Virus record (IMG/VR): IMGVR_UViG_3300034101_003554
Location: 32,001-96,000 of that record
Length of the DNA stretch: 64,000 bases
DNA from: a virus
Reading direction: 5' to 3' (one strand)
Shown one piece after another: positions 8,758 to 34,590 of the stretch (within the stretch, counting starts at the first letter, position 1; each line of letters opens with the position of its first letter). The notes under the pieces are model-generated. The model searched no databases, was not told the origin of the DNA, and saw nothing but the letters and a program-made list of their open reading frames with translations. Position numbers and translations under genes: made by a program.

Positions 8758-8822
8758 AATTTCACTTGACAAACCAAAGTATATATTTTATACTTTCAAA
8801 ACAAATTCAAAAACAGAATATT

Positions 8823-10233: not shown

Positions 10234-10365
10234 GGAAAAATTGGTTTAAAAGGAATGATTACTGCAAAGTTAACACAACAAATCAATGAGGGGGGTTAGT
10301 CTCACTTTCCTAATCGCACGGGAATAAATTACTAACCAAAAACCCATTCTGAAACCAATTTTTCC
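10234..10365 (+). ncRNA. structured RNA motif, copy 1
   Basis: 14-bp closing stem GGAAAAATTGGTTT/AAACCAATTTTTCC, inner GAATG/CATTC, ATTACTGCAA. Confidence 0.6.
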
Positions 10366-10420
10366 TATTTTTTCTTGACTTAATGAAACTTTTAAATTAA
10401 ATTTACGTTATATAGAACAA

Positions 10421-10479
10421 AGGATAGATTCAGCAAATTAAAATATCAAATTTAGTCAAATTGAACAAAAACTATCCTG
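10421..10479 (+). ncRNA. structured RNA motif, copy 2
   Basis: AGGATAG/CTATCCT stem followed by ATTCAGCAA. Confidence 0.55.
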
Positions 10480-10487
10480 ACAATTAA

Positions 10488-10551
10488 GGTTATAACGAAT
10501 GAGTTCAGCAACTTAAAAAAGACAGCATATCTTAAAAAATCATTCCGAACC
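10488..10551 (+). ncRNA. structured RNA motif, copy 3
   Basis: GGTT/AACC and GAATGA/TCATTC stems with GTTCAGCAA. Confidence 0.55.
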
Positions 10552-11801: not shown

Positions 11802-11833
11802 TTTGGAAATTAGAAAATGAAATCGTAATTTTG
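11802..11833 (+). promoter_or_regulatory. Bacteroidetes housekeeping-sigma promoter
   Basis: TTTG-N20-TAATTTTG. Confidence 0.75.
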
Positions 11834-11842
11834 TGATACAAT

Positions 11843-11972
11843 AGTCCTGTGGCGAAAGTTAAGGGTAGAGTGAAGATTGAATGTTCAGACACTCCTTAAT
11901 ACTAGGATTGGAGCGAAAGGTCTAACATAAACAATATGTAGCTTAATACAAGTTCGAATCTTGTCAGGACTA
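11843..11972 (+). ncRNA. tRNA-scaffold element 1 (130 nt)
   Basis: AGTCCTG/CAGGACT acceptor + A, ACAAG-TTCGAAT-CTTGT T arm, no anticodon arm. Confidence 0.75.
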
Positions 11973-11994
11973 CTAAAAATTAAAAACTAAAATT

Positions 11995-12171
11995 ATGGAC
12001 ACACATTATTGGGTAAGATTTGAGATTAGAATTGAAACTATCAACAATAGTTTAAACGCTGATGAACAAAAAGAAATCTTTGACTATATAAAATCAAGAA
12101 TTGACGGTAGAGATGACATAGATAGACCTAAAAAGTTGGATTGTTGTTTTGTCAATATGAGAAAATTTTAG
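11995..12171 (+). CDS. small hypothetical protein (58 aa)
   Basis: ORF with A-rich leader directly after element 1. Confidence 0.6.
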   Translation: MDTHYWVRFEIRIETINNSLNADEQKEIFDYIKSRIDGRDDIDRPKKLDCCFVNMRKF

Positions 12172-12184
12172 ATAAGTTAAATAT

Positions 12185-12295
12185 AGTCCTATGGCGGAAT
12201 TGGTAGACGCACTCCCCCTAGATAGGGAGAATATTGTTTCGACGCAATTAACCAGGTGATGGCATCTAATACAGGTTCGAATCCTGTCAGGACTA
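12185..12295 (+). ncRNA. tRNA-scaffold element 2 (111 nt)
   Basis: Leu-type D arm GGCGGAATTGGTAGACGC, canonical T arm, aberrant 8-nt loop and long insert. Confidence 0.75.
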
Positions 12296-12320
12296 CAAAA
12301 ATAAAAATAAAATTAGGAAT

Positions 12321-12554
12321 ATGAAAAAGTCACTTGAAGAAGTAAAGAAATTGAATACGAAAAATCTTCTACGTTTTTATAGAGCAGAACGTATAAGATT
12401 TTATGGTAGTGGATACTGGTGTAGTTGTGGGTGTGGTGAAATGATATGGGAAGCAAGAACATCACAAGCAGATATGGAACAAAAATATAATGAACATAAA
12501 GATTTTTTGAATGTAATTAAAGCAGAACTCAATACAAGAGAACATATTTCTTAA
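12321..12554 (+). CDS. hypothetical protein
   Basis: 77 aa with CSCGC; follows element 2. Confidence 0.65.
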   Translation: MKKSLEEVKKLNTKNLLRFYRAERIRFYGSGYWCSCGCGEMIWEARTSQADMEQKYNEHKDFLNVIKAELNTREHIS

Positions 12555-12575
12555 AATTGTTTGCGAAACTTTTAA

Positions 12576-12696
12576 AGTCTTGTGGCGGAAGTGATAGACG
12601 CTATTGTAAAAGGGTTCACATCCCAAAGATGAGCAAGTGTAATTGCTACATAGATAATGTCATATTATCATACAGGTTCGAATCCTGTCAGGACTA
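12576..12696 (+). ncRNA. tRNA-scaffold element 3 (121 nt)
   Basis: AGTCTTG..GGCGGAAGTGATAGACGC..ACAGGTTCGAATCCTGTCAGGACTA. Confidence 0.75.
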
Positions 12697-12721
12697 TTTT
12701 TTAACTTTAAAACAAATTATT

Positions 12722-12976
12722 ATGAAATCTTTACAAGAACTTTACGCAAACACACCAATTCAAGTGATTGTTGATTTCTATATTCAAAATAACACAGAAG
12801 TATGCCTACTCGAAGGTAAAATTCATAACGGTGACTTGTCTGCAATTGAAGAATTAGAAACCCTTGTTGCCAAAATCCTAAATTATGAGATTGAGAATTT
12901 TGAAGGTAAAGAGTGTTTTGAATCAGCATACCTGAAAAGAATGAAAATGTTGGTTAGAACTAAACAAATTCTTTAA
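12722..12976 (+). CDS. hypothetical protein
   Basis: ATG 12722 (MKSLQELY) after element 3. Confidence 0.65.
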   Translation: MKSLQELYANTPIQVIVDFYIQNNTEVCLLEGKIHNGDLSAIEELETLVAKILNYEIENFEGKECFESAYLKRMKMLVRTKQIL

Positions 12977-12992
12977 AAAAAAATTAAAACTT

Positions 12993-13204
12993 AGTCCTGT
13001 GGCGGAATTGGTAGACGCACATTAGCTGAGTGATGCAATAAGCAAGTACCCCTAATTAAAAGCCTAACGGATTTTACCCACTAGAACAATAAAAATCCTC
13101 AGATTGGGTTTAGGGTCTTACCAAACTCTCCGAAAACAGAGTAGGAGCTGTTAATAACCAAGATGGTAAGTGTTTATTTACAGGTTCGAATCCTGTCAGG
13201 ACTA
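12993..13204 (+). ncRNA. tRNA-scaffold element 4 (212 nt)
   Basis: same ends, about 160-nt insert. Confidence 0.75.
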
Positions 13205-13218
13205 CAAAAAATTAAAAA

Positions 13219-13368
13219 ATGTTAGTAATTATTGGTCTTTTATTTTTGATAATTGGAATCTTATTCTTAATTTTGTCTTACAAAACAAAGAACTCAGACT
13301 TGTTTATAGTTGGAATTATATTTCTAATTGTTCTTTTGTTTGGATTTATATATGGTTTAATAATATAG
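13219..13368 (+). CDS. small two-helix membrane protein (49 aa)
   Basis: MLVIIGLLFLIIGILFLILSYK...; follows element 4. Confidence 0.55.
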   Translation: MLVIIGLLFLIIGILFLILSYKTKNSDLFIVGIIFLIVLLFGFIYGLII

Positions 13369-13436
13369 GTGTAGCTCAGAGGTAGAGTGCTAGTTTTGGG
13401 AACTAGTGGTCGCTGGTTCAATCCCAGTCACCTATA
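13365..13436 (+). tRNA. tRNA-Pro(TGG)
   Basis: CTAGT-TTTGGGA-ACTAG. Confidence 0.9.
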
Positions 13437-13449
13437 CAAGATTTTTAAA

Positions 13450-13523
13450 GGTTCTATAGCTCAATTGGTTAGAGCACCCGACTCATAATCGGTAGGTTCT
13501 AGGTTCAAGTCCTAGTGGAACCA
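13450..13523 (+). tRNA. tRNA(CAT), probably Ile2
   Basis: CCGA-CTCATAA-TCGG, resembles lysidine-type tRNA-Ile2. Confidence 0.85.
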
Positions 13524-13538
13524 CAACAATTTTAACAA

Positions 13539-13613
13539 TGTCCTGTAACTCAGTTGGTTTAGAGTATTCGTCTGATACGCGAAAAGTCGTGAGTTCGAGC
13601 CTCACCAGGACAA
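13539..13613 (+). tRNA. tRNA-Ile(GAT)
   Basis: TTCGT-CTGATAC-GCGAA. Confidence 0.9.
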
Positions 13614-13621
13614 CAACAAAT

Positions 13622-13694
13622 GTCTCAGTAGCTCAGTGGTAGTAGCCCTTGACTGTTAATCAAGTTGTCGTAGGTTCGAATCCTACCTGGGACG
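13622..13694 (+). tRNA. tRNA-Asn(GTT)
   Basis: CTTGA-CTGTTAA-TCAAG. Confidence 0.9.
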
Positions 13695-13710
13695 CAAATT
13701 TTAATAAATT

Positions 13711-13938
13711 ATGGTTAATGTAAAAATTGGTGAATTTAAGGTTGGTGATAAGTTGTTTATTGATTATAGTGAAAATAATCCAAACAATAAACACATCGAA
13801 ATTAGAGCAATTGTGGATATGGAAGTGGTGATTTATTTGGATGAAAAAAATAACTACCATATGGAACCAATTCATTACTTCAATGTGTTATGTAGATGTA
13901 ACTCACTTAAAAAAATAACAAATGAAACGGACAATTAG
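13711..13938 (+). CDS. hypothetical protein
   Basis: 75 aa ORF. Confidence 0.6.
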   Translation: MVNVKIGEFKVGDKLFIDYSENNPNNKHIEIRAIVDMEVVIYLDEKNNYHMEPIHYFNVLCRCNSLKKITNETDN

Positions 13939-14077
13939 AAAACCAAGTTCATCCAAGTTTTATGAAATGCTTAGAAATAAGTACAACAACCACATTAAGA
14001 AACAAGAAAATGAAATGGAAGATTCTACAAATTAGATTCCAACCTAAAAAATTTAATTAACAATATATAATTTTCAT

Positions 14078-14587
14078 ATGAAAAAAGAGTTTTTATTTAA
14101 TGATAACATTATTGATTTTGAATTTGACGAAGTAATAGATAAAAAAATAAATGTTAAGGTATTTCACTATTTCAGTAATAATCTTTTATTTGAAAAAATT
14201 GAAGATAGAATAATTTGTCTTAAAGGTATTGGTAAATTATTCTTTCAAGAAGGATTCCCAATTTCATTATCTATTTCAGTATTAAAAGAACAAGGGGTTG
14301 AGGTTAGTATATTACACGTTGCTGATGAATGTTTAAAAAATGGGTGGTCACCAATAACAACATATAATAAATTAAAATCTGACTTTGAAGAAGATATTGA
14401 CAAAGAAAATCATTATGATTTACATTTATTAAAAAAATTTTGTGAATCAAATTATGAAGACCAAAGAGAAATGATATTTGAATATCTGTTTAAATGCAAA
14501 ACTGATGATGTCAGAAATAAAAAAAATGAAAATCCAATAGACTGGTTACAATTACTTGTAACTAGTGGGGCTAAAAATAAACTTTAA
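14078..14587 (+). CDS. hypothetical protein with AlaRS-like helix motif
   Basis: KLFFQEGFPISLSISVLKEQGVEV resembles the AlaRS KLYDTYGFPxDLT motif. Confidence 0.6.
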   Translation: MKKEFLFNDNIIDFEFDEVIDKKINVKVFHYFSNNLLFEKIEDRIICLKGIGKLFFQEGFPISLSISVLKEQGVEVSILHVADECLKNGWSPITTYNKLKSDFEEDIDKENHYDLHLLKKFCESNYEDQREMIFEYLFKCKTDDVRNKKNENPIDWLQLLVTSGAKNKL

Positions 14588-14596
14588 CAAGAAAAT

Positions 14597-14671
14597 GACC
14601 CTGTAGCTTAGCTGGTTTAAAGCACAATACTTTTAATATTGGGAGCGGGAGTTCAAATCTCCCCAGGGTCA
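14597..14671 (+). tRNA. tRNA-Lys(TTT)
   Basis: CAATA-CTTTTAA-TATTG. Confidence 0.9.
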
Positions 14672-14868
14672 CAACACAATAAGTTACGAAAGGTGTTATT
14701 AGAAAATAGTAGACATATTTTTTGACATTATGGGTCTGAAAATAAAAATTAAGGATGGTACGAAAGTTCAGGACTTTGACTGTAAACTAGGAAAGGTAAC
14801 TAAGATACGCGGTCTCGGTTCTATTGGAGTACAATTATCAGTATAGCCCAATCATTCTTTTATAAATA

Positions 14869-14953
14869 GTCCTTATGGTGTAATGGTTAAACATCCCACT
14901 CTTACAAAGTGGAGACGAGAAGTATAATCCTAGTTCGAATCTAGGTAAGGACA
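14869..14953 (+). tRNA. tRNA-Val(TAC) with long variable region
   Basis: CCACT-CTTACAA-AGTGG; 16-nt variable region. Confidence 0.8.
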
Positions 14954-14982
14954 CATTAAATAATTTTTAAATTACAAAAACG

Positions 14983-15231
14983 ATGAAAAAAATATTATTC
15001 CTTGGATTAATTTCTGTATTATTCCTTAGTTGTCAAAGAGAAGGTATAGAAGAACTAAAAACAGATAATGCGAATTATAACGTTGAGCTTCTATTTAAAG
15101 TTGATGGATGTAAGGTCTATCGATTTTGGGATAAAGGATACAAGTATTTTACAACTTGTGATGGATCCGTGACTCATAAACTAAGTGGAAAACACCCCAA
15201 AGATTTGGGAATACAGACAATCGTGAAATAA
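14983..15231 (+). CDS. putative lipoprotein
   Basis: signal peptide with lipobox FLSC. Confidence 0.7.
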   Translation: MKKILFLGLISVLFLSCQREGIEELKTDNANYNVELLFKVDGCKVYRFWDKGYKYFTTCDGSVTHKLSGKHPKDLGIQTIVK

Positions 15232-15467
15232 AGATTTGAACAATTAAGGGACCGAGCCTGCCTACAATTTCGGTGTGAGGTGCTAGTAGGTAATTGTTCT
15301 TTATGTTATAATAGTACCACGAGGCATCCCATAAGAACTGCTCACTACTGTGGTCTTGTTGCTTGTAAACGAATAGCCCAAGGTATAAGTTATGAAGCTT
15401 AACTCAACCTATCCCCCACTGACGAGTGGGGTGAAGTTGGGGGATTTCATATATTTATAGTAAAAAA

Positions 15468-15926
15468 ATGATGAAAGATTTAAGAATACGTATTAAAACA
15501 ATTTTAAAAGAAGAATTTGAAAATTATACTATAGTATATCGTGGTATTGGAGATAGAATTAACGCTACCTATGGTAAAGTATCTGATGATGGAATGGGTG
15601 TATTTTGGACAGATAATTTAACTATGGCCAAATGGTTTGCTGGACTTATTGATTATTCTGTTGATACTTATAGATATGAAAATATAAAAGGTTCTAAGGG
15701 TAAGATTTTAACTAAAGAAATAAAATTTGAAAATCCATATGTTGTTAATTCAGATGATGAAGATTATGACTCATTTCAAGTTTATATGGATGAAATATAC
15801 AAATTCGGTGGGGTTGACAAATATAAAGAAATGTTAATTGAAAAAAATTATGATGGTATCATATTAAGAAATTGTTCAACAAATTACTATGAAAATGGAA
15901 CTTATGATATCTTTATTGAGTTATAG
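15468..15926 (+). CDS. possible ADP-ribosyltransferase-fold protein
   Basis: VYRG, GVFWTDN..A..FA, YDGIIL motifs; late motif upstream. Confidence 0.5.
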   Translation: MMKDLRIRIKTILKEEFENYTIVYRGIGDRINATYGKVSDDGMGVFWTDNLTMAKWFAGLIDYSVDTYRYENIKGSKGKILTKEIKFENPYVVNSDDEDYDSFQVYMDEIYKFGGVDKYKEMLIEKNYDGIILRNCSTNYYENGTYDIFIEL

Positions 15927-15948
15927 GTAATATAAAAAGAAACAATAG

Positions 15949-16033
15949 GGTTGGGTGGCCGAGTTGGTTAAGGCACTAGTCTGCAAAACTATCGAATGAA
16001 AATTCATCGTGGGTTCGAATCCCTCCCCAACCT
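15949..16033 (+). tRNA. tRNA-Cys(GCA) with long variable arm
   Basis: TAGT-CTGCAAA-ACTA; U73; ATGAA/TTCAT extra arm. Confidence 0.85.
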
Positions 16034-16042
16034 CAAACAAAT

Positions 16043-16115
16043 GTAGATGTAGCTCAATTGGTAGAGTTGCTGATTCCAAACCAGCCGGTTGGGGGTTCGA
16101 GTCCCTCCATCTATG
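16043..16115 (+). tRNA. tRNA-Trp(CCA)
   Basis: GCTG-ATTCCAAAC-CAGC; G73. Confidence 0.9.
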
Positions 16116-16146
16116 CAAATTTTATCAACAATTAAAACTATTTATT

Positions 16147-16467
16147 ATGGTAAGGGATTACATAATCGAAACATTAACAAAAATCAAAGAACAAGATGAG
16201 AAGGTACACAAGCTCTATACTATGGGAGTTGATTTACTTGACTTTGACAACACCATTTCGCAACTTGAGAAGTCCATTCCGACCATCCTCAGAAAAGAAA
16301 AAGACGAACAATACGGATGGATACAGGATTTAGTTGGTTGGTGGTTGTATGAAAAAATTGAAAAAAAGATTTGGCACGATAAAATTGAATTTAATGTTGA
16401 AAGTGTGGAAAATTTTACCGACTATTTGATAAGAGAGTATGGAACAAATGACATACCAACAAATTAA
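16147..16467 (+). CDS. hypothetical protein
   Basis: ATG 16147 (MVRDYII); the longer track ORF overlaps tRNAs. Confidence 0.65.
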   Translation: MVRDYIIETLTKIKEQDEKVHKLYTMGVDLLDFDNTISQLEKSIPTILRKEKDEQYGWIQDLVGWWLYEKIEKKIWHDKIEFNVESVENFTDYLIREYGTNDIPTN

Positions 16468-16469
16468 TT

Positions 16470-17102
16470 ATGGCTTATATTGAAAGTAATTTTTTCCCTT
16501 TAAAGGTATATGTTCGAAATGAATATCTATATCAAAATAAGAAGGGATTTGGTGAATTTACTGAGGGTGTTATAATCTCAATTAGATGTTTACCAGGACA
16601 AGCTGCACTATTCCAAGTATTATTTAATAATGGTGTTATGAGAGATAAACTTCCATCTCACGCATTATTAACTGAACCCAAATCACCTAATGTTGATTTA
16701 CCATTCCATTATCTTCAAATATGGAATTGTTTTTCATACAATTTCTCGGTACATCATTTAAGTTATATCTATGATACCAAAGTTTCAGTCTTTATGAAAG
16801 ATAAGAAATGGTATGATGGAAGTTATTATGCCACAATAAATTGGGGTTCTAGTGATTTGAATAGTGATTTTACCTTGGCTGAGGATCCAATGGAACATAA
16901 ATCACATCACATAATACTACTGAATAATGGCCAAATTGCCCTACAACCAAATAATAGAATAAAATGGGCAGAACCATCCTTTGTCACAAAATCTTTCCCT
17001 GAGAAGCCAGATTATTTGGTGAATAAGGATTATTATAATTGTGAGGGGTTCGAGAAATGGCAAACTGAGGATTCTGATTATATGTTTTATGATAATAATT
17101 AA
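16470..17102 (+). CDS. phage hypothetical protein
   Basis: 210 aa; LQIWNCFS and HKSHH..NGQIALQPNNR motifs. Confidence 0.7.
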   Translation: MAYIESNFFPLKVYVRNEYLYQNKKGFGEFTEGVIISIRCLPGQAALFQVLFNNGVMRDKLPSHALLTEPKSPNVDLPFHYLQIWNCFSYNFSVHHLSYIYDTKVSVFMKDKKWYDGSYYATINWGSSDLNSDFTLAEDPMEHKSHHIILLNNGQIALQPNNRIKWAEPSFVTKSFPEKPDYLVNKDYYNCEGFEKWQTEDSDYMFYDNN

Positions 17103-17105
17103 GAT

Positions 17106-17489
17106 ATGTTTTTATATAAAGTAGAAGTTAAAATAGCAACTAATCCTGAAATGGACTTAGGTTTATTCACAAAAGAATTTATCCCAAAAGGAACTATAGT
17201 TTGGGAATTCGTGGAAGGTGTGGATATTAAAATGGATGAAACGACATTCAATAAATTGAACGAAGCTCAAAAAGAATTTTTTGAAAAATATGGGTGGAAG
17301 GAAGATGATGGGTTTTATTATTCCTCTTGTGACTTAACTAACTTTATTAATCATAGTTACAATCCAAATTTAGATGTTGTGGGGGAAATAATAATTTCAA
17401 ATAAAGATATCCAAATTGGGGAAGAATTATTTGAAGATTATAGTCAATTTGATACTGAGTTTCATACTTATAAAAATGAATTTATTTAA
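17106..17489 (+). CDS. SET-domain protein
   Basis: GLFT..FIPKGT, FINHSYNPN, DIQIGEELFEDY. Confidence 0.85.
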   Translation: MFLYKVEVKIATNPEMDLGLFTKEFIPKGTIVWEFVEGVDIKMDETTFNKLNEAQKEFFEKYGWKEDDGFYYSSCDLTNFINHSYNPNLDVVGEIIISNKDIQIGEELFEDYSQFDTEFHTYKNEFI

Positions 17490-17498
17490 CAAAAAAAT

Positions 17499-18014
17499 AT
17501 GACACCAATGGTAATTGTAAATTTCTATAAACCCTATGATACGACTTGGGAACAACTCCAACTAATGGCATTGGATAAAATTGCCGAACACGAAAAAGAA
17601 ACAAGCGAAGTTGAATTTGGGGATGTCTCCGTTCAACAACAATTTGATGATTATCGTGCAGCTTGTTTTCAAGGGTTAAAAACATTTATAATGCAAGTTC
17701 TAAATGAATGGGGGACTGAAAACATCTTGGTGTTTAATGATAAATTCTATAAGAAATTTGAACATATGGAAATGGAGGGTAGATTAAAAACTTATACAAC
17801 TCCAAATGTTTTCAAAACATCAAAGGAATTATTTAAATGTTTAAAGAAAGAAAAGTTTCAATTAGAACCAGATGATTTTGATTTTATTCACGAAACTTTT
17901 TCAAGTGCTGACGATGTTGTATGTAATATATTCGCGTTTGAATATGAATTAAAAGAAATTGATGATGACAAAGATTGGTTGGATGAGAACGGATTTGGTG
18001 ATATTTTAGAATAA
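17499..18014 (+). CDS. hypothetical protein
   Basis: 171 aa, ends DENGFGDILE. Confidence 0.65.
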   Translation: MTPMVIVNFYKPYDTTWEQLQLMALDKIAEHEKETSEVEFGDVSVQQQFDDYRAACFQGLKTFIMQVLNEWGTENILVFNDKFYKKFEHMEMEGRLKTYTTPNVFKTSKELFKCLKKEKFQLEPDDFDFIHETFSSADDVVCNIFAFEYELKEIDDDKDWLDENGFGDILE

Positions 18015-18269
18015 AAAAAAAGATAATAATATGAAAACAATAGGCGTATTAGAAGCATTGAAAGATGAAACAATTAAAAAAGGAGATAAAATAATTATTG
18101 AACTTATTGTTGATGAAATAGATATTGAAAGTATGTACCCATTATCTGCATTTTGTTTTAATCAATATGATGAAATATCAAAAACTAATTATTTTAAATT
18201 GTCATGGAGTACTAAAATAAAAATAAAAGACATAAATGATGAGAACGGATTTGGGGATATTTTAGAATA
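17982..18269 (+). repeat. 32-bp direct repeat (17982-18013, 18238-18269)
   Basis: GATGAGAACGGATTTGG(T/G)GATATTTTAGAATA. Confidence 0.9.
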
Positions 18270-18270
18270 G
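18031..18270 (+). CDS. hypothetical protein
   Basis: 79 aa, also ends DENGFGDILE. Confidence 0.6.
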   Translation: MKTIGVLEALKDETIKKGDKIIIELIVDEIDIESMYPLSAFCFNQYDEISKTNYFKLSWSTKIKIKDINDENGFGDILE

Positions 18271-18272
18271 TT

Positions 18273-18590
18273 ATGAAAAAGAAAAAAAATATATTTACAA
18301 AAGAAATTAAGGTAGCCGATGCTAAGACATCTGTTAGTGAATTAATAAGAGAAACATTAATTAACTTCAGTTGGGGTTTCTTTGGTAATTCAATAGTTGT
18401 ATTTATGGCCAAAGAAATTGATCTTGCCGTATTGATTAATTTTTTATTATATTATATCTTAATATCTTATATTGTTAATCGTGCGAAATATGAAAGTAAT
18501 TTTGGTAAATTCATTGTTTTACCTGGTTCAGCGGCATTAGGAGCATTCACAGGATATAAAGTAGCACAAATTATTTCACAATTTTTGTAA
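18273..18590 (+). CDS. membrane protein
   Basis: three hydrophobic segments. Confidence 0.7.
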   Translation: MKKKKNIFTKEIKVADAKTSVSELIRETLINFSWGFFGNSIVVFMAKEIDLAVLINFLLYYILISYIVNRAKYESNFGKFIVLPGSAALGAFTGYKVAQIISQFL

Positions 18591-18617
18591 CTAATTTAAT
18601 ATAATATATTTATTAGT

Positions 18618-19106
18618 ATGAAACTTAATGAAGAAATAAAACGAATAAAAGGTTTAATGTTGGAAAACTCCGACCCTTTCACTATTTCAACAGCGGGTAG
18701 TATTAATATAACACCTGGTCTTCACATATCTATTAATAATGGTGAAGTTAAGATGGGTCATATTAATATGATTGATTTTGATAATGGAAAACATTATGAT
18801 TACTACCTACCAAGACTTTTGTATAATGTTAATGAATATTGTAAATCAAATTGTACTGAAAATTTATTCAATAATAATAACTCAATATATCTACACGATT
18901 TAGAAATTTTTAAACCTTACAGAGGTAAAGGTCTAAGTAATCGTCTAATGGACGAATGTCATAAATTAGGAAAAAATATGGGAGTTGACTACATTATTCT
19001 AATAACTGAATGTAATAATTATGTAGCCCAAAACTTATATAAAAAATATGGGTACGAAATTTATAGTTCAGATGGTATTGAAGACTTATTTTACAAAAAA
19101 ATTTAA
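18618..19106 (+). CDS. GNAT acetyltransferase
   Basis: LEIFKPYRGKGLS, N..AQNLYKKYGY. Confidence 0.85.
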   Translation: MKLNEEIKRIKGLMLENSDPFTISTAGSINITPGLHISINNGEVKMGHINMIDFDNGKHYDYYLPRLLYNVNEYCKSNCTENLFNNNNSIYLHDLEIFKPYRGKGLSNRLMDECHKLGKNMGVDYIILITECNNYVAQNLYKKYGYEIYSSDGIEDLFYKKI

Positions 19107-19201
19107 AATAAAGACTCAACAACTTGATTAATTTTTGTAACAAACTTGACCTTTTGTATTATATCGTTATATTTAATAAAAAAATAGTAAAAACTTCACA
19201 A

Positions 19202-19273
19202 ATGAAACACAATCTCTATATGGACTTAACAACTAGAGCTGAGGGTAGAAATCCTCGGATGGAGATGGTATGA
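19202..19273 (+). CDS. putative leader peptide (23 aa) MKHNLYMDLTTRAEGRNPRMEMV
   Basis: short ORF followed by terminator and tRNA cluster. Confidence 0.5.
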   Translation: MKHNLYMDLTTRAEGRNPRMEMV

Positions 19274-19300
19274 TATAAGGTTTTAATTGTTAATAAAATC

Positions 19301-19339
19301 AAATCCATCTTCCTAAAAAAAAGATGGATTTTTTTTTTT
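19301..19339 (+). terminator. intrinsic terminator / attenuator 2
   Basis: AAATCCATCTT/AAGATGGATTT + U-tract. Confidence 0.8.
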
Positions 19340-19346
19340 GAGAGTG

Positions 19347-19378
19347 TTTGAAAATGTGAATTAGTAATTGTATCTTTG
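19347..19378 (+). promoter_or_regulatory. Bacteroidetes housekeeping-sigma promoter
   Basis: TTTG-N20-TATCTTTG. Confidence 0.7.
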
Positions 19379-19410
19379 TGATGTTCATTGAAATTGAGGG
19401 AAAAATATTT

Positions 19411-19485
19411 GGTACCATAGTTTAACGGCAAGAATATAAGGTTGTCACTCTTATGGTAGGGGTTCGATTCCCCTTGGTACCGCCA
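19411..19485 (+). tRNA. tRNA-Asp(GTC)
   Basis: TTGTCAC loop; G73; CCA encoded. Confidence 0.9.
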
Positions 19486-19559
19486 AAAAAAAGTTTTAAA
19501 AGTTGGAACTAAATGAGATGAAGGTTGGTTTATAATAATGTAACTTAAAAAAATAGATT

Positions 19560-19706
19560 ATGACAAACTTTATGATAAACTTTATTATTCTTGCTATTTT
19601 TATAATGCTTTTGGGTTTTATTGGTAACTATATCATAAAAAAATATCCAGATTCTTGGGTAGCAAAATGGTGGGATGATATGACTGATATTGGTCATTGG
19701 TGGTAA
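19560..19706 (+). CDS. small membrane protein (48 aa)
   Basis: ORF after GGAACT promoter copy 2. Confidence 0.6.
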   Translation: MTNFMINFIILAIFIMLLGFIGNYIIKKYPDSWVAKWWDDMTDIGHWW

Positions 19707-19890
19707 ATTAAAATAATATCTATGTCACGAGATTAAGATGTGACTTACGTTCTAAGGAGTTTACTTATTGTCAATTAGGGCGGACGAAGGCAACATAAGT
19801 TATATTATGGTGACTTGATATTCACCATAACGAATACAAGATATCAAAAAGAGAAGTGGAGAGTTCTTATTCAAAACTTCTCTTTATTTT

Positions 19891-20173
19891 GCCTAGGTGG
19901 TGTAATGGTAGCCACGCAAGACTTAAAAATTTGAGTGCTATTGGTGAAAACCTTTAAGTAGAACTCCGTAAATTCGGTGAAGCCTTTAAAATGGTAATAC
20001 CGAGCCAAGTTCAAGAAATTGAAAAGGTGTAGAGACTAGACACGGAGAACCTAAGTCGAAAGATATGGTTAAGGTATAGTCCAGACCACAAACTGAAAAG
20101 GTGGTGAAAACCATAGTGGTAAGAAAATCTTGTGACCAGTAAGGTCGTGCGGGTTCGAGTCCCGCCCTGGGTA
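19891..20173 (+). tRNA. tRNA-Leu(TAA) interrupted by a group I intron
   Basis: exons 19891-19924 and 20124-20173 rebuild CAAGA-CTTAAAA-TCTTG and a Leu V arm. Confidence 0.9.
19925..20123 (+). mobile_element. group I intron (199 nt, no ORF)
   Basis: P1 ACTT/GAGT with U-G pair; P AAATTCGGTGAA, Q AATACCGAGC, R GTAGAGACTA, S AAGGTATAGTCC; terminal G. Confidence 0.9.
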
Positions 20174-20412
20174 CAAAAAAAAAGTTTAAAAAAGATTTGG
20201 AATTAAGAAAATCAAATCGTAATTTTGTGAGACAATAGTCAGGTGGCGAAATGGTAGACGCACATCCGCAGGTGATTTAGTTTGAGGATACAGCGGCAGT
20301 CGAGGTCACAAACATATACAAATATAGGTTCGAATCCTATCCTGACTACAAAAAAAAAGTTTAAAAAAGATTTGGAATTAAGAAAATGAAATCGTAATTT
20401 TGTGACACAATA
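20174..20412 (+). repeat. about 63-bp near-identical promoter-containing direct repeat (about 20174-20237 and 20349-20412)
   Basis: AAAAAGTTTAAAAAAGATTTGGAATTAAGAAAAT(C/G)AAATCGTAATTTTGTGA(G/C)ACAATA flanking element 5. Confidence 0.9.
20237..20348 (+). ncRNA. tRNA-scaffold element 5 (112 nt)
   Basis: AGTCAGG/CCTGACT (covaried acceptor), GGCGAAATGGTAGACGC, ATAGG-TTCGAAT-CCTAT. Confidence 0.75.
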
Positions 20413-20417
20413 AAAAC

Positions 20418-20490
20418 GCACCATTCGACAAGGGGTATAAGTCACCTCCCTTTCACGGAGGAGTCACGGGTTCGAATCCCGTATGGTGTA
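20418..20490 (+). tRNA. tRNA-Glu(TTC)
   Basis: CCTCC-CTTTCAC-GGAGG. Confidence 0.9.
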
Positions 20491-20542
20491 CAAATCTCAG
20501 AAGTAATTAATCTGGGGCTGAGAGGTTCGAAACTCACGGAAA

Positions 20543-20642
20543 TGATTATGGTGTAGGCGCACGGAAAGATAAAGTATGAGAATGGTAAGTACCCATTAAA
20601 GAAATTGACATCAGGATTAAGGTTCGAATCCTTATTAATCAA
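20543..20642 (+). ncRNA. divergent tRNA-scaffold-like element
   Basis: TGATTA/TAATCA ends, TAAGG-TTCGAAT-CCTTA T arm, no anticodon loop. Confidence 0.45.
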
Positions 20643-20651
20643 CAAACATTA

Positions 20652-20723
20652 TGCAAGGAAGGGCAACGGTCGTCCGCTAGGCTCATAACCTAGAAGCTGT
20701 GGGTTCGATTCCCACCCTTGCGT
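20652..20723 (+). tRNA. tRNA-Met(CAT)
   Basis: CTAGG-CTCATAA-CCTAG; atypical D arm. Confidence 0.75.
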
Positions 20724-20732
20724 CAAACAAAT

Positions 20733-20807
20733 TGCAAGATGGACTGGAGGTGGTTCCAGCTCGGTCTCATAAGCCGTACCATGTGGGTTCGACTCCCACT
20801 CTTGCAA
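20733..20807 (+). tRNA. tRNA-Met(CAT)
   Basis: CGGT-CTCATAA-GCCG. Confidence 0.75.
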
Positions 20808-20813
20808 CTAAAC

Positions 20814-21048
20814 AACTTAACTAATGGCGGTAACTGATTAGTAAAATAATCGAACTAAAGCAATCTAATGGAAGTTGAGTAGCGTCTAATATAGTAGTTT
20901 TATAATACTTGCACTACAAATGGGTATTAAATTAACAGGTTGGGAATCTGACTACATAATATTAGTGTTAGGTGGACTTAAATAAGTGAACACCTGTGTA
21001 ACGGGTTGAAAACTTTACGATTGAAATGTCGACCATTTGGGTTAAGTT
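20814..21048 (+). ncRNA. candidate structured RNA (about 235 nt)
   Basis: AACTTAAC/GTTAAGTT closing stem between tRNA-Met and tRNA-Tyr; no ORF. Confidence 0.45.
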
Positions 21049-21079
21049 CTATTTGTAGTAGAACTTGTAAGTTGTAAAA

Positions 21080-21165
21080 GGGTGTCTATCCAAATTGGTG
21101 AAGGAAGCTGTCTGTAAAACAGTTGCCACGTGCTAAACTTGGGGGTTCGAATCCCTCGGCACCCA
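21080..21165 (+). tRNA. tRNA-Tyr(GTA)
   Basis: GCTGT-CTGTAAA-ACAGT, long V arm. Confidence 0.9.
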
Positions 21166-21169
21166 CAAA

Positions 21170-21372
21170 AGAAATGAAACCTTACATAGGATGGATTAGC
21201 ACCATTGAAAGAGAACTTGGCTCTCATAGGATCGCAACCTAAATCGAGAGTAATAATGACCCAAGTTGTTATGTAGGAGACCCTGCTCTACTGTGCACGG
21301 TATCAGGCTATGGGGAACAAACCATCGTAAAACTCTTGCCCATATAATACTTATGGAAGGACTTTCATTTCT
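21170..21372 (+). ncRNA. candidate structured RNA (about 200 nt)
   Basis: AGAAATGAAA/TTTCATTTCT closing stem, TACATA/TATGTA and AACTTGG/CCAAGTT inner stems. Confidence 0.5.
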
Positions 21373-21377
21373 AATTT

Positions 21378-21452
21378 GCAGTAATAGCTCAATGGTAGAG
21401 TTCTTGTCTTCCAAACAAGATGTTGCGAGTTCGAGTCTCGCTTACTGCTCCA
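21378..21452 (+). tRNA. tRNA-Gly(TCC)
   Basis: CTTGT-CTTCCAA-ACAAG; CCA encoded. Confidence 0.9.
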
Positions 21453-21468
21453 AATTTAAAAATTCATT

Positions 21469-21681
21469 ATGAATCAGTCTGAATTTAGAAATCTTAGAAC
21501 TGGGGATAAAATCCATATTAAGTCTCGTGATGGTTTATATACCTTCTTAACAAAAGACTTTATAACTGGTGAAATTCATATAACTTGTAAAAGATGGAAA
21601 TATGAAGATTCCCCAATCAGAGTAACAAGTTTTGATGATTTCAAATGTTTGGCTGGTGGATTATGGAGAAAAATTATGTAA
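21469..21681 (+). CDS. hypothetical protein
   Basis: 70 aa ORF. Confidence 0.6.
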   Translation: MNQSEFRNLRTGDKIHIKSRDGLYTFLTKDFITGEIHITCKRWKYEDSPIRVTSFDDFKCLAGGLWRKIM

Positions 21682-21754
21682 TAGGAGAAAGTAAGTCGGT
21701 TGGTGTATAGCTTCCTTACGTCTAAAATTTAAGCACAATTACATAATACAAAAA

Positions 21755-21831
21755 GGGGGATTAGCTCATTCAGCAAGAGCACTTGTTTTGCACACAAGAG
21801 GTGGTCGGAGCAAAGCCGACATCCTCCACCA
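21755..21831 (+). tRNA. tRNA-Ala(TGC)
   Basis: G3:U70, CTTGT-TTTGCAC-ACAAG, atypical T loop AGCAAAG, CCA encoded. Confidence 0.85.
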
Positions 21832-21860
21832 AAAAATAAACGTTGTTTTAAATTTAATTT

Positions 21861-22466
21861 ATGAAAAAATTTTTAGTATTTTTAGTATTATTTGTATTAT
21901 TGACATCTTGGTCATATACACCCCCACGTAGGGTATTATATATCGGTGATAGTTTAACCTGTGCTCCTGGTGGGTGGCAGGATCAAGTTTCAAAACATTT
22001 TGGATATCAAAGTCTCAATCTAGCAAAAGGTGGTGTTAGAACGGATTATATGAGAACGACAATGAATGCTTGTTTTAAAAAAGATTCAGCTTTCTCTCAG
22101 GTATTCATTTATGGTGGATGTAACGATGCTTTTTCTATGGTAGATTTACAAGGGGCGGTGAATAACATTCAGATGATGGTTGATAGTTGTAATAGAAGAG
22201 GAATTGAACCTATTGTAATTGTGGGTTTTAATCCAGCTCAAGTAACAACAAAGACTGTGTATGACGCAGAAACAACCAAGAGATGTGTTGGAAGATACAT
22301 TGAGTTTCAAAAACTAATGGTTAAAGAAAAAACTGGATTAAAGAATTGTAAAATAATTCCTATGGACACTACAATGTTTTATAGTGATACTTGGGATGGA
22401 ATTCACTTCGCACCTTCTGGACATAAGAAATTTTCTACTTGGGTTATAAATAATATGGAAAAATGA
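21861..22466 (+). CDS. secreted SGNH/GDSL hydrolase
   Basis: signal peptide; GDSL, GGCND, DGIH; similar to the N-terminus of 355..1932. Confidence 0.85.
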   Translation: MKKFLVFLVLFVLLTSWSYTPPRRVLYIGDSLTCAPGGWQDQVSKHFGYQSLNLAKGGVRTDYMRTTMNACFKKDSAFSQVFIYGGCNDAFSMVDLQGAVNNIQMMVDSCNRRGIEPIVIVGFNPAQVTTKTVYDAETTKRCVGRYIEFQKLMVKEKTGLKNCKIIPMDTTMFYSDTWDGIHFAPSGHKKFSTWVINNMEK

Positions 22467-22714
22467 AAAAAATATTTTGGTTTTCAACTTTAATCACTAT
22501 CTTTGTATCCTGTTACAAACACCCCACAATAGAACCTGGTGATATTGTTAAGAAGTGTGTGATTGATACGATGTATATTACAGAATCTCCATCTACAATT
22601 GAATTTGGTAAAAGATATAATTATAAAACCGATTGTGATGAATTGATAATGACAAGAAGAAGTGATGTATATAAAATAGGGGATACAATAACCTATGTTT
22701 ATAAAAGAAGATAA
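22463..22714 (+). CDS. putative lipoprotein
   Basis: lipobox FVSC. Confidence 0.65.
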   Translation: MKKIFWFSTLITIFVSCYKHPTIEPGDIVKKCVIDTMYITESPSTIEFGKRYNYKTDCDELIMTRRSDVYKIGDTITYVYKRR

Positions 22715-22720
22715 TTATTT

Positions 22721-22806
22721 GCCGTTTTCGCATAGTGGTTGATTGCACTGGATTTGTAACCCAGTTCCGTTAGGACACGTCAGTTCGAATCTGACAAACG
22801 GCTCCA
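22721..22806 (+). tRNA. tRNA-Thr(TGT) with long variable arm
   Basis: CTGG..TTTGTAA..CCAG; TCC-GTTA-GGA extra arm; CCA encoded. Confidence 0.85.
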
Positions 22807-23142
22807 AAAATCCCAATTGATGTAGATAGATTGGGTGGTCTGCAAGCCTCAATTGCCGTATTTGGTTAATATGTTAACCTAACCACGTATTATGGTTAAT
22901 ATGTCACTATAACTAGGGGTCGCCAAGACCAGATTGTTGGCAGTTTACACGAGATAGTCACTCGCATTTTCTACAAAAGGCAAAAAACACTAGTCCGTTT
23001 CTACTGGATGAGGGGGTATTGAAAAAGTGTAGCTAACTTGGAAGATACCCCAAAATTTTTTAAAAAAAAACATAGGAAAAAGTGAATAATTCAGGAAGAA
23101 CAACTATCTTTGTCTTATTAATCACTGAAACACATAATCACA

Positions 23143-23373
23143 ATGGCTAAAGAGAAAAAAACAATCCAAGTTGAGTTATTAAAAGAATTCGCAAACAACT
23201 ATTTGGCTATTCCAATGGTTTCTATCCAAGAAAAAATGGGCATTATCACAATGATTGAAAAGGTTCTACATGAATCCAATGCTTATAAAGGCTATATGTA
23301 TTTGAAACTTGAAGAAAACAATACCCCACCAGCATTTGAAACTGAGGGGTGGGTAACAAGAAAATATTTTTAG
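23143..23373 (+). CDS. hypothetical protein
   Basis: ORF after TAtcTTTG promoter. Confidence 0.65.
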   Translation: MAKEKKTIQVELLKEFANNYLAIPMVSIQEKMGIITMIEKVLHESNAYKGYMYLKLEENNTPPAFETEGWVTRKYF

Positions 23374-23479
23374 TGGTTGTGACACCTAATAATTCACAAG
23401 TAGTGGTTGACACTTAGAATGTTACCTGACTTTAAGGTTTGGAATAGAAAAACCGAAAACTTTTAAAACTTTTAAAACT

Positions 23480-23752
23480 TTGAATATTATGGCACTTATT
23501 TATGTAATCTTGGATAGCAACGATAGAATTCCTATTCTAACTGCAAGTAGTATTGAAAAAGCTGAATTACTTTTGAATCAATATATGGGTGTTGAAGGTC
23601 CTATATTTGATGAAAGTGTTGAGTATATAGGTTTTGAACCATTTGATGACAGAGGTTATTACACAATTTATGAAGGCGAATACAAATATAAGACAGAAGA
23701 TGGTGAACAAAGATTCATGAGATATTGTATGGGATTAGATAGTTTAGATTAA
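23480..23752 (+). CDS. hypothetical protein
   Basis: 90 aa ORF. Confidence 0.6.
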   Translation: MNIMALIYVILDSNDRIPILTASSIEKAELLLNQYMGVEGPIFDESVEYIGFEPFDDRGYYTIYEGEYKYKTEDGEQRFMRYCMGLDSLD

Positions 23753-23822
23753 AAATTATGGTAAAGATTGTAATTTTGTGAACTATTTTTTATTCTAAAT
23801 ATTTATTATTAAAAATAAAACT

Positions 23823-24272
23823 ATGAGTAAAGAAATGAGGAAATTTATAGACGCATTCAAAAAATTCAATTTGAATGAAAGTGTTACTAATGTATATAAA
23901 CGAGATGATGATGATGATGATTCACCTATTATAATTGAAGGTGAAATAGAATATGATGATGATGTATTTTATTACAAAGTCGAGTATCACGATGATTTCG
24001 GATATAAAGTATTTGAAGTAACATCAGAAGAAAATGAAGATGTTGAAGATTTTTTTGATGATGATGAATATGAAGAATTATTAGGTTTAATAATTGATGA
24101 TGTAAAATCAGAAAGATATAAAGAAAAAGAAATATCCACTAAGTGGGTTGCTATTGATACCAGAAATGGTAGAGTAATACACAGAAGTAAAAATCATATT
24201 GATAGAAAATTTGTTGCTGAATTGTATGATATACCAAAATCTTTTATAGAAATTAAAATAGAGACAAGGTAA
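23823..24272 (+). CDS. acidic hypothetical protein
   Basis: ATATTTAT upstream. Confidence 0.65.
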   Translation: MSKEMRKFIDAFKKFNLNESVTNVYKRDDDDDDSPIIIEGEIEYDDDVFYYKVEYHDDFGYKVFEVTSEENEDVEDFFDDDEYEELLGLIIDDVKSERYKEKEISTKWVAIDTRNGRVIHRSKNHIDRKFVAELYDIPKSFIEIKIETR

Positions 24273-24310
24273 AAATTATTACACATAACATAAATATATA
24301 TGTAACTTTT

Positions 24311-24452
24311 AGTCCTATGGCGGAAGTAGACGCTGTGGTGCAAATCCACTTAGCCCAAAGGGGGTTACAATATAGAGGTTCAATTCCTCTACTGGCACGG
24401 ATGTGTCAGATTGGCGTTGTTGTAAATACAGGTTCGAATCCTGTCAGGACTA
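24311..24452 (+). ncRNA. tRNA-scaffold element 6 (142 nt)
   Basis: conserved ends; insert holds extra T-arm-like hairpins. Confidence 0.75.
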
Positions 24453-24487
24453 CAAAATAAATTTTTTAACAAACTTAAATTTTAATT

Positions 24488-24655
24488 ATGAGTGATTTAG
24501 AAACAAAACTTCAAATTTTACAAGAGCAATTAAAACTCAACAATGAAAAACTTGAACATATGAGAGATGAAATAAAGTTTAGTAAAACTTTTATTTATTT
24601 TGATTTAGCATTGTTGGGATTAATTTTGTTATACGTAATTTTGTTTGTAATTTAA
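24488..24655 (+). CDS. small coiled-coil/membrane protein (55 aa)
   Basis: ORF directly after element 6. Confidence 0.6.
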   Translation: MSDLETKLQILQEQLKLNNEKLEHMRDEIKFSKTFIYFDLALLGLILLYVILFVI

Positions 24656-24665
24656 AGTGGAATTT

Positions 24666-24737
24666 AGTCCTGTAGCCAAATTGGTAAAGGCCTCATGTAT
24701 GGATGAGAGAGTATGGGTTCGAATCCTGTCGGGACTA
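24666..24737 (+). ncRNA. tRNA-scaffold element 7 (72 nt, 6-nt pseudo-anticodon loop)
   Basis: AGTCCTG/CGGGACT; CTCAT-GTATGG-ATGAG. Confidence 0.7.
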
Positions 24738-24831
24738 TTAAAAAATAATTCTAACCTTTGGAACTAAATGATAGGTAAAAAGGTTTATAGTTATGTAAGT
24801 TGAATATTAACACACAAAAAAATTAAAAATT

Positions 24832-25002
24832 ATGAATATAGAAGATGTAAAAAAATTAATTAAGGAAAACCTTAAAATTAGTGTAGAAACTCTCACTAGA
24901 GGTAGTGAATGTTCGTATAATGAAAAAACATATGTTAAATTAATTTTTCTTGATGAAGTTATTTCAGAAACAGAAATTGAAAAACTTAGTGAAGATAGAT
25001 AA
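24832..25002 (+). CDS. small hypothetical protein (56 aa)
   Basis: ORF after GGAACT promoter copy 3. Confidence 0.6.
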   Translation: MNIEDVKKLIKENLKISVETLTRGSECSYNEKTYVKLIFLDEVISETEIEKLSEDR

Positions 25003-25042
25003 TAATTTTATGTTTTATAACATAAATATATATGTAACTTTT

Positions 25043-25187
25043 AGTCCTATGGCGGAAGTAGACGCTGTGAGAGTATGTGTATGGCTCTGTTAGGTTCGTG
25101 TAACGCTATTAACGGGAATTAGTAGATGATTTCAAAGATAAAAGCACATACAAAATCTACGTATAGGTTCAAATCCTATTAGGACTA
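25043..25187 (+). ncRNA. tRNA-scaffold element 8 (145 nt)
   Basis: AGTCCTA/TAGGACT; ATAGG-TTCAAAT-CCTAT. Confidence 0.75.
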
Positions 25188-25194
25188 CAACATT

Positions 25195-25282
25195 TAAAAC
25201 ATCAACTCGTAAAGAAAATGATGGCAAAGAGGTTCAGATTAAAGGTAACGGGCTCCTACCTACCCTGAACAAGATGTTTTAA
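25195..25282 (+). ncRNA. candidate structured RNA
   Basis: TTAAAACATC/GATGTTTTAA, GTTCAG/CTGAAC, AGGTA/TACCT nested stems. Confidence 0.45.
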
Positions 25283-25289
25283 TTAATAT

Positions 25290-25403
25290 GGTCAAGTGGC
25301 GGAATGGAAGACGCTAAGTAAGATGGTGTACGTTTGTCCCATAAGAAAGACCGATGCAACAGAAATGTGAAGGGTCGTATAGGTTCAAATCCTATCTTGA
25401 CTA
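25290..25403 (+). ncRNA. tRNA-scaffold element 9 (114 nt)
   Basis: GGTCAAG/CTTGACT; GGCGGAATGGAAGACGC; T arm. Confidence 0.75.
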
Positions 25404-34168: not shown

Positions 34169-34209
34169 AACAAAAAACCCCTTCTTAACGGAGGGGTTTC
34201 TTTTTTAAA

Positions 34210-34590
34210 GGTGGAGGTAGAGAGATTTGAACTCTCGTGTTGTCCGTTTTAACTATTAAGGACTACATGTTTAGGACAACATTATTCGCAGTGTTCCGAG
34301 CTATTTGATTTTTATACACCCAAAATCAACAAAATCGGTCAATTCATTTTTAGGGATGAGAATTGATTAGACAACCCTATAGTGCTCCTGTTCCTGAGTT
34401 AATGCACCCCGACTCGAAAGTAATACCCTATTAACTAGGCTACTACTGCTTCTTCAGCACGGATTAAACCTACTGCAGAAAGTTTGTTGATAACGTTGCC
34501 GTGTATCGTTTCAAACCAGTTTAACAGACTTAGTTTAGGTCTGACATGCCCCAAATAACTAACAACGTCAGTCAATTCCAGATTACCCCC
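34210..34590 (-). ncRNA. ssrA: tmRNA
   Basis: 5' GGGGGTAATCTGGAATTGAC; acceptor GGGGGTA/TACCTCC with G3:U; T arm; tag ORF 34500-34435 GNVINKLSAVGLIRAEEAVVA*. Confidence 0.9.

Follow-up and report, generated by a model that had tools for sequence, protein, structure and literature searches.

Nine tRNA-framed RNAs of an uncultured freshwater phage and the large phage RNA family to which they belong

The closest known RNAs to the elements described here are the "stable RNAs" of phages T5 (RNA1 and RNA2) and T4 (rnaC and rnaD). Our nine elements, E1 to E9, are carried by the + strand of a DNA stretch of 64,000 nucleotides (nt), hereafter the window, which spans positions 32001-96000 of an IMG/VR virus record of 141 kb (IMGVR_UViG_3300034101_003554, CheckV completeness 48%) and comes from an uncultured freshwater phage. 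They are 72-212 nt long, and their common tRNA-like frame consists of a canonical T arm, a 7-bp acceptor stem and an A as discriminator. We use the word centre for whatever takes the place of the anticodon and variable arms. RNAs with this frame form a large phage-only RNA family. They are of a known type, the phage tRNA-like stable RNAs, in a form of which no description was found in the literature searched. We lean towards the view that the nine elements are phage small RNAs matured via the host tRNA pathway and endowed with exchangeable effector centres.

T5 RNA1 and RNA2 (NC_005859, 30501-30644 and 32959-33083), annotated as 'tRNA-like stable RNA with unknown functions', lie inside the phage tRNA cluster among micro-open reading frames (micro-ORFs) and have tRNA-like ends without an anticodon, as our elements do. 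The T arm and acceptor stem of RNA1 surround a large non-anticodon centre and its full length gives a weak match to the Rfam tRNA model (24 bits). Furthermore, its Leu-type D arm is identical at 17 of 19 bases, the two differences being a compensatory flip of pair 10:25. The T arm of RNA2 is almost identical to that of the elements, and RNA2 holds an internal T-loop hairpin like some of the centres described below. However, the acceptor stems and centres of the T5 RNAs cannot be aligned with those of the elements, the D arm being the only sequence shared with RNA1. The T5 RNAs are also single copies in a phage of Enterobacteria, for which neither centre exchange nor a large family has been described. 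The T4 species 1 and 2 RNAs (rnaC and rnaD) are small stable RNAs located at the end of the T4 tRNA cluster and processed in vivo. rnaC has a canonical T arm, but the T4 RNAs lack a Leu-type D arm, pair imperfectly in the acceptor stem as we read it and do not match the Rfam tRNA model.

Transfer-messenger RNA (tmRNA) likewise joins acceptor stem and T arm ends to a long functional insert in place of the anticodon arm. Nevertheless, the nine elements do not match the tmRNA family RF00023 and lack a conserved tag ORF and a set of pseudoknots, and all nine have U:A at pair 3:70 instead of the tmRNA G3:U70. The phage encodes its own tmRNA (34209-34590, - strand), separate from the nine elements. 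In engineered tRNA scaffolds (PMC3753655), a cargo replaces the anticodon arm, and the cell is thereby made to process and stabilise the RNA. These scaffolds are man-made, whereas the frame RNAs constitute a natural, diversified system. If the RNAs are made as predicted, phages independently reached the laboratory tRNA-scaffold trick for obtaining stable RNAs.

The frame of the nine elements

An initial annotation of this DNA had proposed nine elements sharing an acceptor stem, a discriminator A and a canonical T arm. All nine were recovered in the window, on the + strand: E1 (11843..11972, 130 nt), E2 (12185..12295, 111 nt), E3 (12576..12696, 121 nt), E4 (12993..13204, 212 nt), E5 (20237..20348, 112 nt), E6 (24311..24452, 142 nt), E7 (24666..24737, 72 nt), E8 (25043..25187, 145 nt) and E9 (25290..25403, 114 nt). 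Canonical pairs account for 61 of 63 acceptor and 45 of 45 T-stem positions, and the discriminator is A in 9/9. In these parts, the T arm with its TTCRAAT loop included, the elements conform to a canonical class II tRNA-Leu. Compensatory double changes are found in the acceptor stem (pairs 5-7) and in the T stem (pairs 50 and 52); E9, for example, has the acceptor stem GGTCAAG/CTTGACT. The 3' frame motif with at most 3 mismatches occurs 8 times in the window and never in 100 shuffles. The ninth copy, E9, was recovered with a degenerate pattern, and the 141-kb record holds no frame copy beyond these nine.

A D arm of Leu type with G18G19 is found in E2, E3 (as a variant), E4, E5 and E9. Positions 8-26 of the frame are those of a bacterial tRNA-Leu D arm. 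The Leu-type D arm is missing or shortened in E1 (divergent D region), E6, E7 (non-Leu D arm) and E8. The initial annotation had set apart E1 and E7 only. Its statement holds for most elements, but E6 and E8 too have a short D loop without GG.

The absence of a normal 7-nt anticodon loop, also stated initially, needs a correction, since E1 and E6 each hold a hairpin with a 7-nt loop beside the D arm; ARAGORN gives no tRNA-Leu for any of the nine. That of E1 lies outside the fold conserved in the E1 family, and that of E6 has a 4-bp stem and a G at position 33. No element combines a canonical 5-bp anticodon stem and 7-nt loop (U33, purine 37) with a Leu anticodon: the loops are of 4, 6 or at least 8 nt or are not conserved. 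For example, E2 has a 5-bp hairpin with an 8-nt loop, followed by two more hairpins, and E7 a 6-nt 'anticodon' loop. The 24 tRNA calls made by ARAGORN on the window comprise 23 ordinary tRNAs and E7, the only element called, as tRNA-??? with a 2-base 'anticodon'. The Rfam tRNA model (RF00005) matches E2 (37.8 bits), E5 (41.1), E7 (41.5) and E9 (33.6), and these four elements above its threshold each carry a long insertion; the five others are unmatched. As anticipated, no Rfam family besides tRNA matches any of the nine, even at permissive thresholds, in a search of the window and 13 loci. For genome annotation, this means that tRNA finders miss these genes or report odd tRNAs.

Two decoding roles were considered and rejected. 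E1 is called tRNA-Ser(UGA) by ARAGORN after deletions, with a hairpin that is outside the covarying fold. Quadruplet decoding was envisaged for E2 and its orthologue at locus L044, whose 8-nt loop contains UAG or UAA, but the other orthologues have shorter loops of about 5 to 6 nt.

The base after the discriminator is C in 7/9 elements, mostly as CAA, and in 22/22 real tRNAs checked in this phage. This suggests that elements and tRNAs could follow the same 3' maturation route.

Distribution of the family and conservation of the centres

The 3' end of the frame is present in at least 119 IMG/VR viral contigs, many of which carry 2-6 copies. Joining each 3' match to its 5' half yielded at least 109 distinct elements of 70-212 nt. 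Among these 109 elements from the matches listed, the 5' half is nearly invariant although it lies outside the search pattern, and the centres (22-162 nt) fall into at least 90 clusters without a common core. In the same way, the centres of the nine elements are mutually unrelated within a total length of 72-212 nt, as had been noticed from the window. As a set, the centres are better folded than segments drawn at random from the same loci (mean z -0.72 vs -0.05, p = 4e-6).

Outside viral contigs, the 3' end of the frame was searched, in its commonest form, in one bacterial genome per species, for 185,579 species. The exact matches amount to 23 stretches, all in contigs of metagenome-assembled genomes (MAGs), 11 of the 23 from Bacteroidota, and all with odd centres. 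This exact form was found in no isolate genome of that set and there is no normal tRNA-Leu among the 23 matches. The cultured phages of the collection contain neither the frame nor BLAST relatives; matches to Enterococcus phages were rejected as relatives, being ordinary tRNA-Gln.

Frame RNAs are independent of tRNA genes. A 68-kb phage genome (100% complete) carries two of them and no canonical tRNA. A 113-kb genome (98% complete), also without canonical tRNA, has a single frame RNA that is its sole match to the tRNA model. No conserved neighbour genes were found around the solitary frame RNAs of two complete phages.

Diverged orthologues of four centres, those of E1, E2, E3 and E5, occur in phage contigs that cannot otherwise be aligned, and compensatory changes are present in each case. 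Apart from the orthologous element, these diverged phages share no DNA-level similarity with the 17.5-kb tRNA region of the window. The E1 centre is part of a conserved family with the invariant hairpin CTCC-TTAATACTAGGATY-GGAG, members of which were found in 34 viral contigs. In an alignment of 16 of its sequences, 17 of 27 pairs show a compensatory change. The helices of E1-type centres are 95.4% paired, compared with 84.4% after shuffling, and none of 500 shuffles reached the observed value; with partners slid along, pairing is 35-51%. In the nine sequences of the E3 type, compensatory changes affect 11 of 30 pairs. The centre of this type is closed by a helix and contains two hairpins, the first of them T-loop-like, as well as a variable-arm hairpin; MAFFT misaligned the closing helix, which was confirmed by eye. 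The hairpin beside the D arm covaries in the E2 orthologues of L044, L249 and L250; its loop, of about 5 to 8 nt depending on the orthologue, is therefore not an anticodon loop. The E5 centre type includes the copy of the window and 7 other distinct copies in other contigs, on several frame variants. Its first hairpin has a GGCA tetraloop in 7/8 members, and pairs 46:77 and 53:71 of its second helix covary. Compensatory changes thus affect both the frame and four types of centre, which upholds two proposals of the initial annotation, that the covarying stems reflect structural selection rather than decay and that a natural tRNA frame carries diverse centres under structural selection.

Most members of the E1 family stand on a second conserved tRNA-like frame. 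It differs from the first in its acceptor stem (GGCTCTA/TAGAGCY), in its D region, which is extended and forms a hairpin, and in its T arm (GGTGGGTTCGATTCCTAC), and carries the invariant hairpin of E1. The RNAs built on it are of about 150 nt, adjoin ordinary tRNAs and are absent from Rfam; they occur at L285 (13056-13208, -), L280 (2090-2242, +) and about 20 more loci. Neither the very large size of the family, nor the membership of E1 in a separate conserved family mostly found on another frame, nor the role of the frame as a recombination junction discussed below had been part of the initial annotation.

The common frame could have been kept for leucylation by the host leucyl-tRNA synthetase (LeuRS), the leucylated RNA, or the sequestration of LeuRS or elongation factor Tu, being the function that the centre directs or tunes. 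Bacterial LeuRS reads A73 and the tertiary core of the tRNA and is not known to depend on the anticodon. In favour of such a role, the frame is specifically of Leu type and the discriminator is A in all nine elements. A73 is named for LeuRS in PMC2377443. We nevertheless regard this explanation as quite improbable. Four elements (E1, E6, E7 and E8) are without the Leu-type D loop and the E1 family is mostly on the other frame. The discriminator is G in 4 of its 16 aligned members and is sometimes G or T in the sets gathered via the centre. Lastly, the 141-kb record, at 48% completeness, encodes no LeuRS-class enzyme and no Leu/Phe transferase. Neither a class Ia synthetase of any other kind nor a CCA-adding enzyme was found in it.

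The descent of the frame from tRNA-Leu also raises the question whether the elements are decaying tRNA-Leu paralogues or intron-interrupted tRNA genes whose inserts splice out. A true tRNA-Leu(UAA) of the same cluster (19893-20170, +) does have its anticodon loop split by a compact, ORF-less group I intron (RF00028, 62.3 bits, 19914-20105), and ARAGORN makes no call there. ARAGORN also calls tRNAs in some variants of the elements with artificial deletions. However, such calls are about as frequent as with shuffled sequences used as controls, unless a non-canonical hairpin is left in place. None of the nine matches RF00028, the centres have no common core over their 22-162 nt and the E2-type loop lengths are not constant. 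Splicing to normal tRNAs, named initially as an outcome contrary to the proposal, is thus not borne out. Decay of redundant tRNA copies is excluded by the presence of frame RNAs in tRNA-free, nearly complete phage genomes and by the compensatory changes in frame and centres. Decay or splicing taken together is scarcely credible as an explanation.

Exchange at the frame, promoters and micro-ORFs

Comparison with close relatives reveals swaps of inserts and indels delimited by the frame. The relative L065 is 98.5-99.7% identical to the window in the flanks, and one 40-nt centre replaces positions 12212-13177, that is the E2 centre, an ORF, E3, another ORF and the E4 centre. One breakpoint is in the 5' frame of E2, the other in the T arm of E4. 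A second relative, L015, is without about 700 nt of the window, roughly 24459-25161, with a junction in the 3' frame common to E6 and E8. E7 is missing from L015, E6 is 94% identical to the L015 copy and the E9 centre is identical there. All the L065 and L015 breakpoints fall inside frames. Centres also occur on various frames: the E5 centre is found in AGTCAGG, GGTCAGG and AGTCCTG frames, and most frames of this genome are of the AGTCCTG variant whereas orthologous centres elsewhere are in AGTCAGG frames. Since the frame hardly differs from one copy or phage to the next, it probably also acts as a homologous-recombination junction, at which centres or centre-plus-ORF blocks are exchanged and lost.

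The 5' half of E8 and the 30 nt upstream duplicate those of E6. About 53 nt are identical (24285-24337 and 25017-25069, +), corresponding to an upstream palindrome-containing segment and the 5' half of the frame. The centre of E6 includes a second T-arm-like hairpin.

Promoter motifs of Bacteroidota type precede some elements. The motif TTTG - 20 nt - TAATTTTG (11802..11833, +) ends 9 nt before E1, and a motif dedicated to E5 (20196..20227, +) is likewise followed by E5 after 9 nt. A third copy of the cassette (20371-20402) precedes tRNA-Glu. The whole cassette, of about 55 nt, is present in three copies on the + strand, before E1 (11802-11842), E5 (20178-20236) and tRNA-Glu (20353-20411). The pattern TTTG-N19-21-TAnnTTTG, after a Bacteroidota consensus reportedly due to Bayley and colleagues in 2000, occurs 19 times compared with 5.6 expected. 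This excess and the frame-bearing MAG contigs from Bacteroidota indicate that the host is probably a freshwater member of this phylum. Only E1 and E5 have a promoter cassette of their own. Bracketed by two such cassettes and without an ORF, E5 is a gene of its own.

Small ORFs follow several elements, 14-26 nt after E1-E4 and 35 nt after E6. On the + strand, they encode 58 aa after E1 (11995..12171, found only in the close relative L065), 77 aa after E2 (12321..12554), 84 aa after E3 (12722..12976, ATG at 12722) and a hydrophobic product of 49 aa after E4 (13219..13368). Comparison across related loci showed that these micro-ORFs do not travel with the centres.

This arrangement underlies the main rival explanation, according to which the frames are punctuation and recombination anchors: ribonucleases P and Z (RNase P and RNase Z) would cut a polycistronic early transcript into micro-ORF mRNAs and the centres would matter little. 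The short spacing to the ORFs, the restriction of promoter cassettes to E1 and E5 and the position of the indel breakpoints within frames are all consistent with it. We consider it unlikely, as E5 stands alone between two promoters without an ORF, centres are kept with compensatory changes while the adjoining ORFs are not, and orthologous centres are found beside unrelated genes.

The reading that we favour, small RNAs with exchangeable effector centres, can be detailed as follows. Transcription would start from Bacteroidota-type promoters, E1 and E5 using their own and the other elements probably sharing transcripts with nearby micro-ORFs and tRNAs. Through its acceptor stem, T arm and D arm, each transcript would be accepted as a substrate by the enzymes that mature the tRNAs of the host, RNase P generating the 5' end and RNase Z or exonucleases together with the CCA-adding enzyme the 3' end. 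The predicted product is a compact, stable, L-shaped RNA, whose centre would be a type-specific folded module and the working part. This module would most likely bind a host or phage protein or RNA, with an accessory function in host takeover or counter-defence. The sequences themselves show conservation, covariation, promoter motifs, exchange breakpoints and independence from tRNA genes, and from there processing, stability and the effector role are inferred.

Several observations weigh against this reading. Five of the nine centres (E4, E6, E7, E8 and E9) have no diverged orthologue, and no orthologue at all was found for E4, which has the largest centre (about 160 nt); selection is therefore shown only for the other four centres. 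The first collection scan used a fixed 3' frame sequence, and the search itself thus accounts for some of the conservation seen there. The centres of the 109 elements among the matches listed have no k-mer in common and show only a mild enrichment of the T-loop-like GGTTC. The structure z-scores are modest and the E5 centre is not stable alone. The searches revealed no partner, target or shared motif, and Rfam is empty for the centres. In the phage's own genome, antisense matches are at chance level, the longest complements being of 9-15 nt. A 13-nt complement of the E1 loop in a terminase-like ORF (window position 46614) was rejected, a second copy existing in only 4 of 33 other records. In five Bacteroidota MAGs searched for host targets, the E1-loop complement is no commoner than a control pattern. 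Finally, the regular alternation with micro-ORFs is equally compatible with a processing role.

A bolder and rather doubtful extension would see in this system an RNA counterpart of phage anti-defence islands, the centres being aptamers or decoys directed against host defences or factors, made by the tRNA pathway and recombined as cassettes through the frame, with a subset maybe leucylated. The initial annotation had likewise thought of decoys or sensors as possible roles. If our favoured reading is true, phages possess a large, fast-exchanging repertoire of structured small RNAs, which adds an RNA layer to the phage accessory gene pool. The T4 and T5 "stable RNAs", unexplained for decades, would gain a family context and dozens of conserved modules.

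Neighbouring genes and other RNAs of the tRNA region

Just upstream of the tRNA cluster lies a gene (8766-10226) for a DUF2828/DUF7788 (TROVE/vWA-like) protein, and the initial annotation had suggested that the elements could be its ligands. By analogy, they might be bound as the tRNA-like Y RNAs are by Ro60. The phage also encodes an RNA ligase (30719-31201) in addition to its tmRNA. Three hairpins lie at 10234-10551. According to PMC4201824, bacterial YrlA RNAs mimic tRNA. Their tRNA-mimicking module is joined to another functional module and, in some phages, they are located near tRNAs and RNA-repair genes. However, the ends of YrlA form the Ro-binding helix and its tRNA-like part is internal, whereas the ends of the elements form an acceptor stem; none of the elements matches YrlA (RF02553). 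Most frame-bearing phage records have no TROVE-like gene: the protein (PF11443) is encoded by 7 of 50 such records and by one of the nine that are at least 90% complete. As a general partner, it does not hold up, and we judge this explanation very improbable.

The other genes around the tRNA region encode a SET-domain protein (17106-17489) and a GNAT acetyltransferase (18618-19106), in addition to the DUF2828/DUF7788 protein, RNA ligase and tmRNA mentioned above. An ORF of the segment 13926-14592 (14078-14587, 169 aa, no Pfam match) is missing from L065, a relative at 98.5-100% identity there, and represents a further indel within the tRNA cluster.

Among the ordinary tRNAs, tRNA-Val(UAC) (14869-14954), tRNA-Cys(GCA) (15949-16034) and tRNA-Thr(UGU) (22721-22806), all on the + strand, are 86 nt each, with variable regions of about 15 to 17 nt, an unusual length for these amino acids. 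The freshwater-1 RNA (RF02979) is located inside phage tRNA clusters, in the window (21272-21332, +; sub-threshold, 58.9 bits, E = 6e-12), in L278 (1382-1443, -; 86 bits) and in L026 (4124-4186, +). The freshwater-1 motif is therefore a phage tRNA-cluster RNA.

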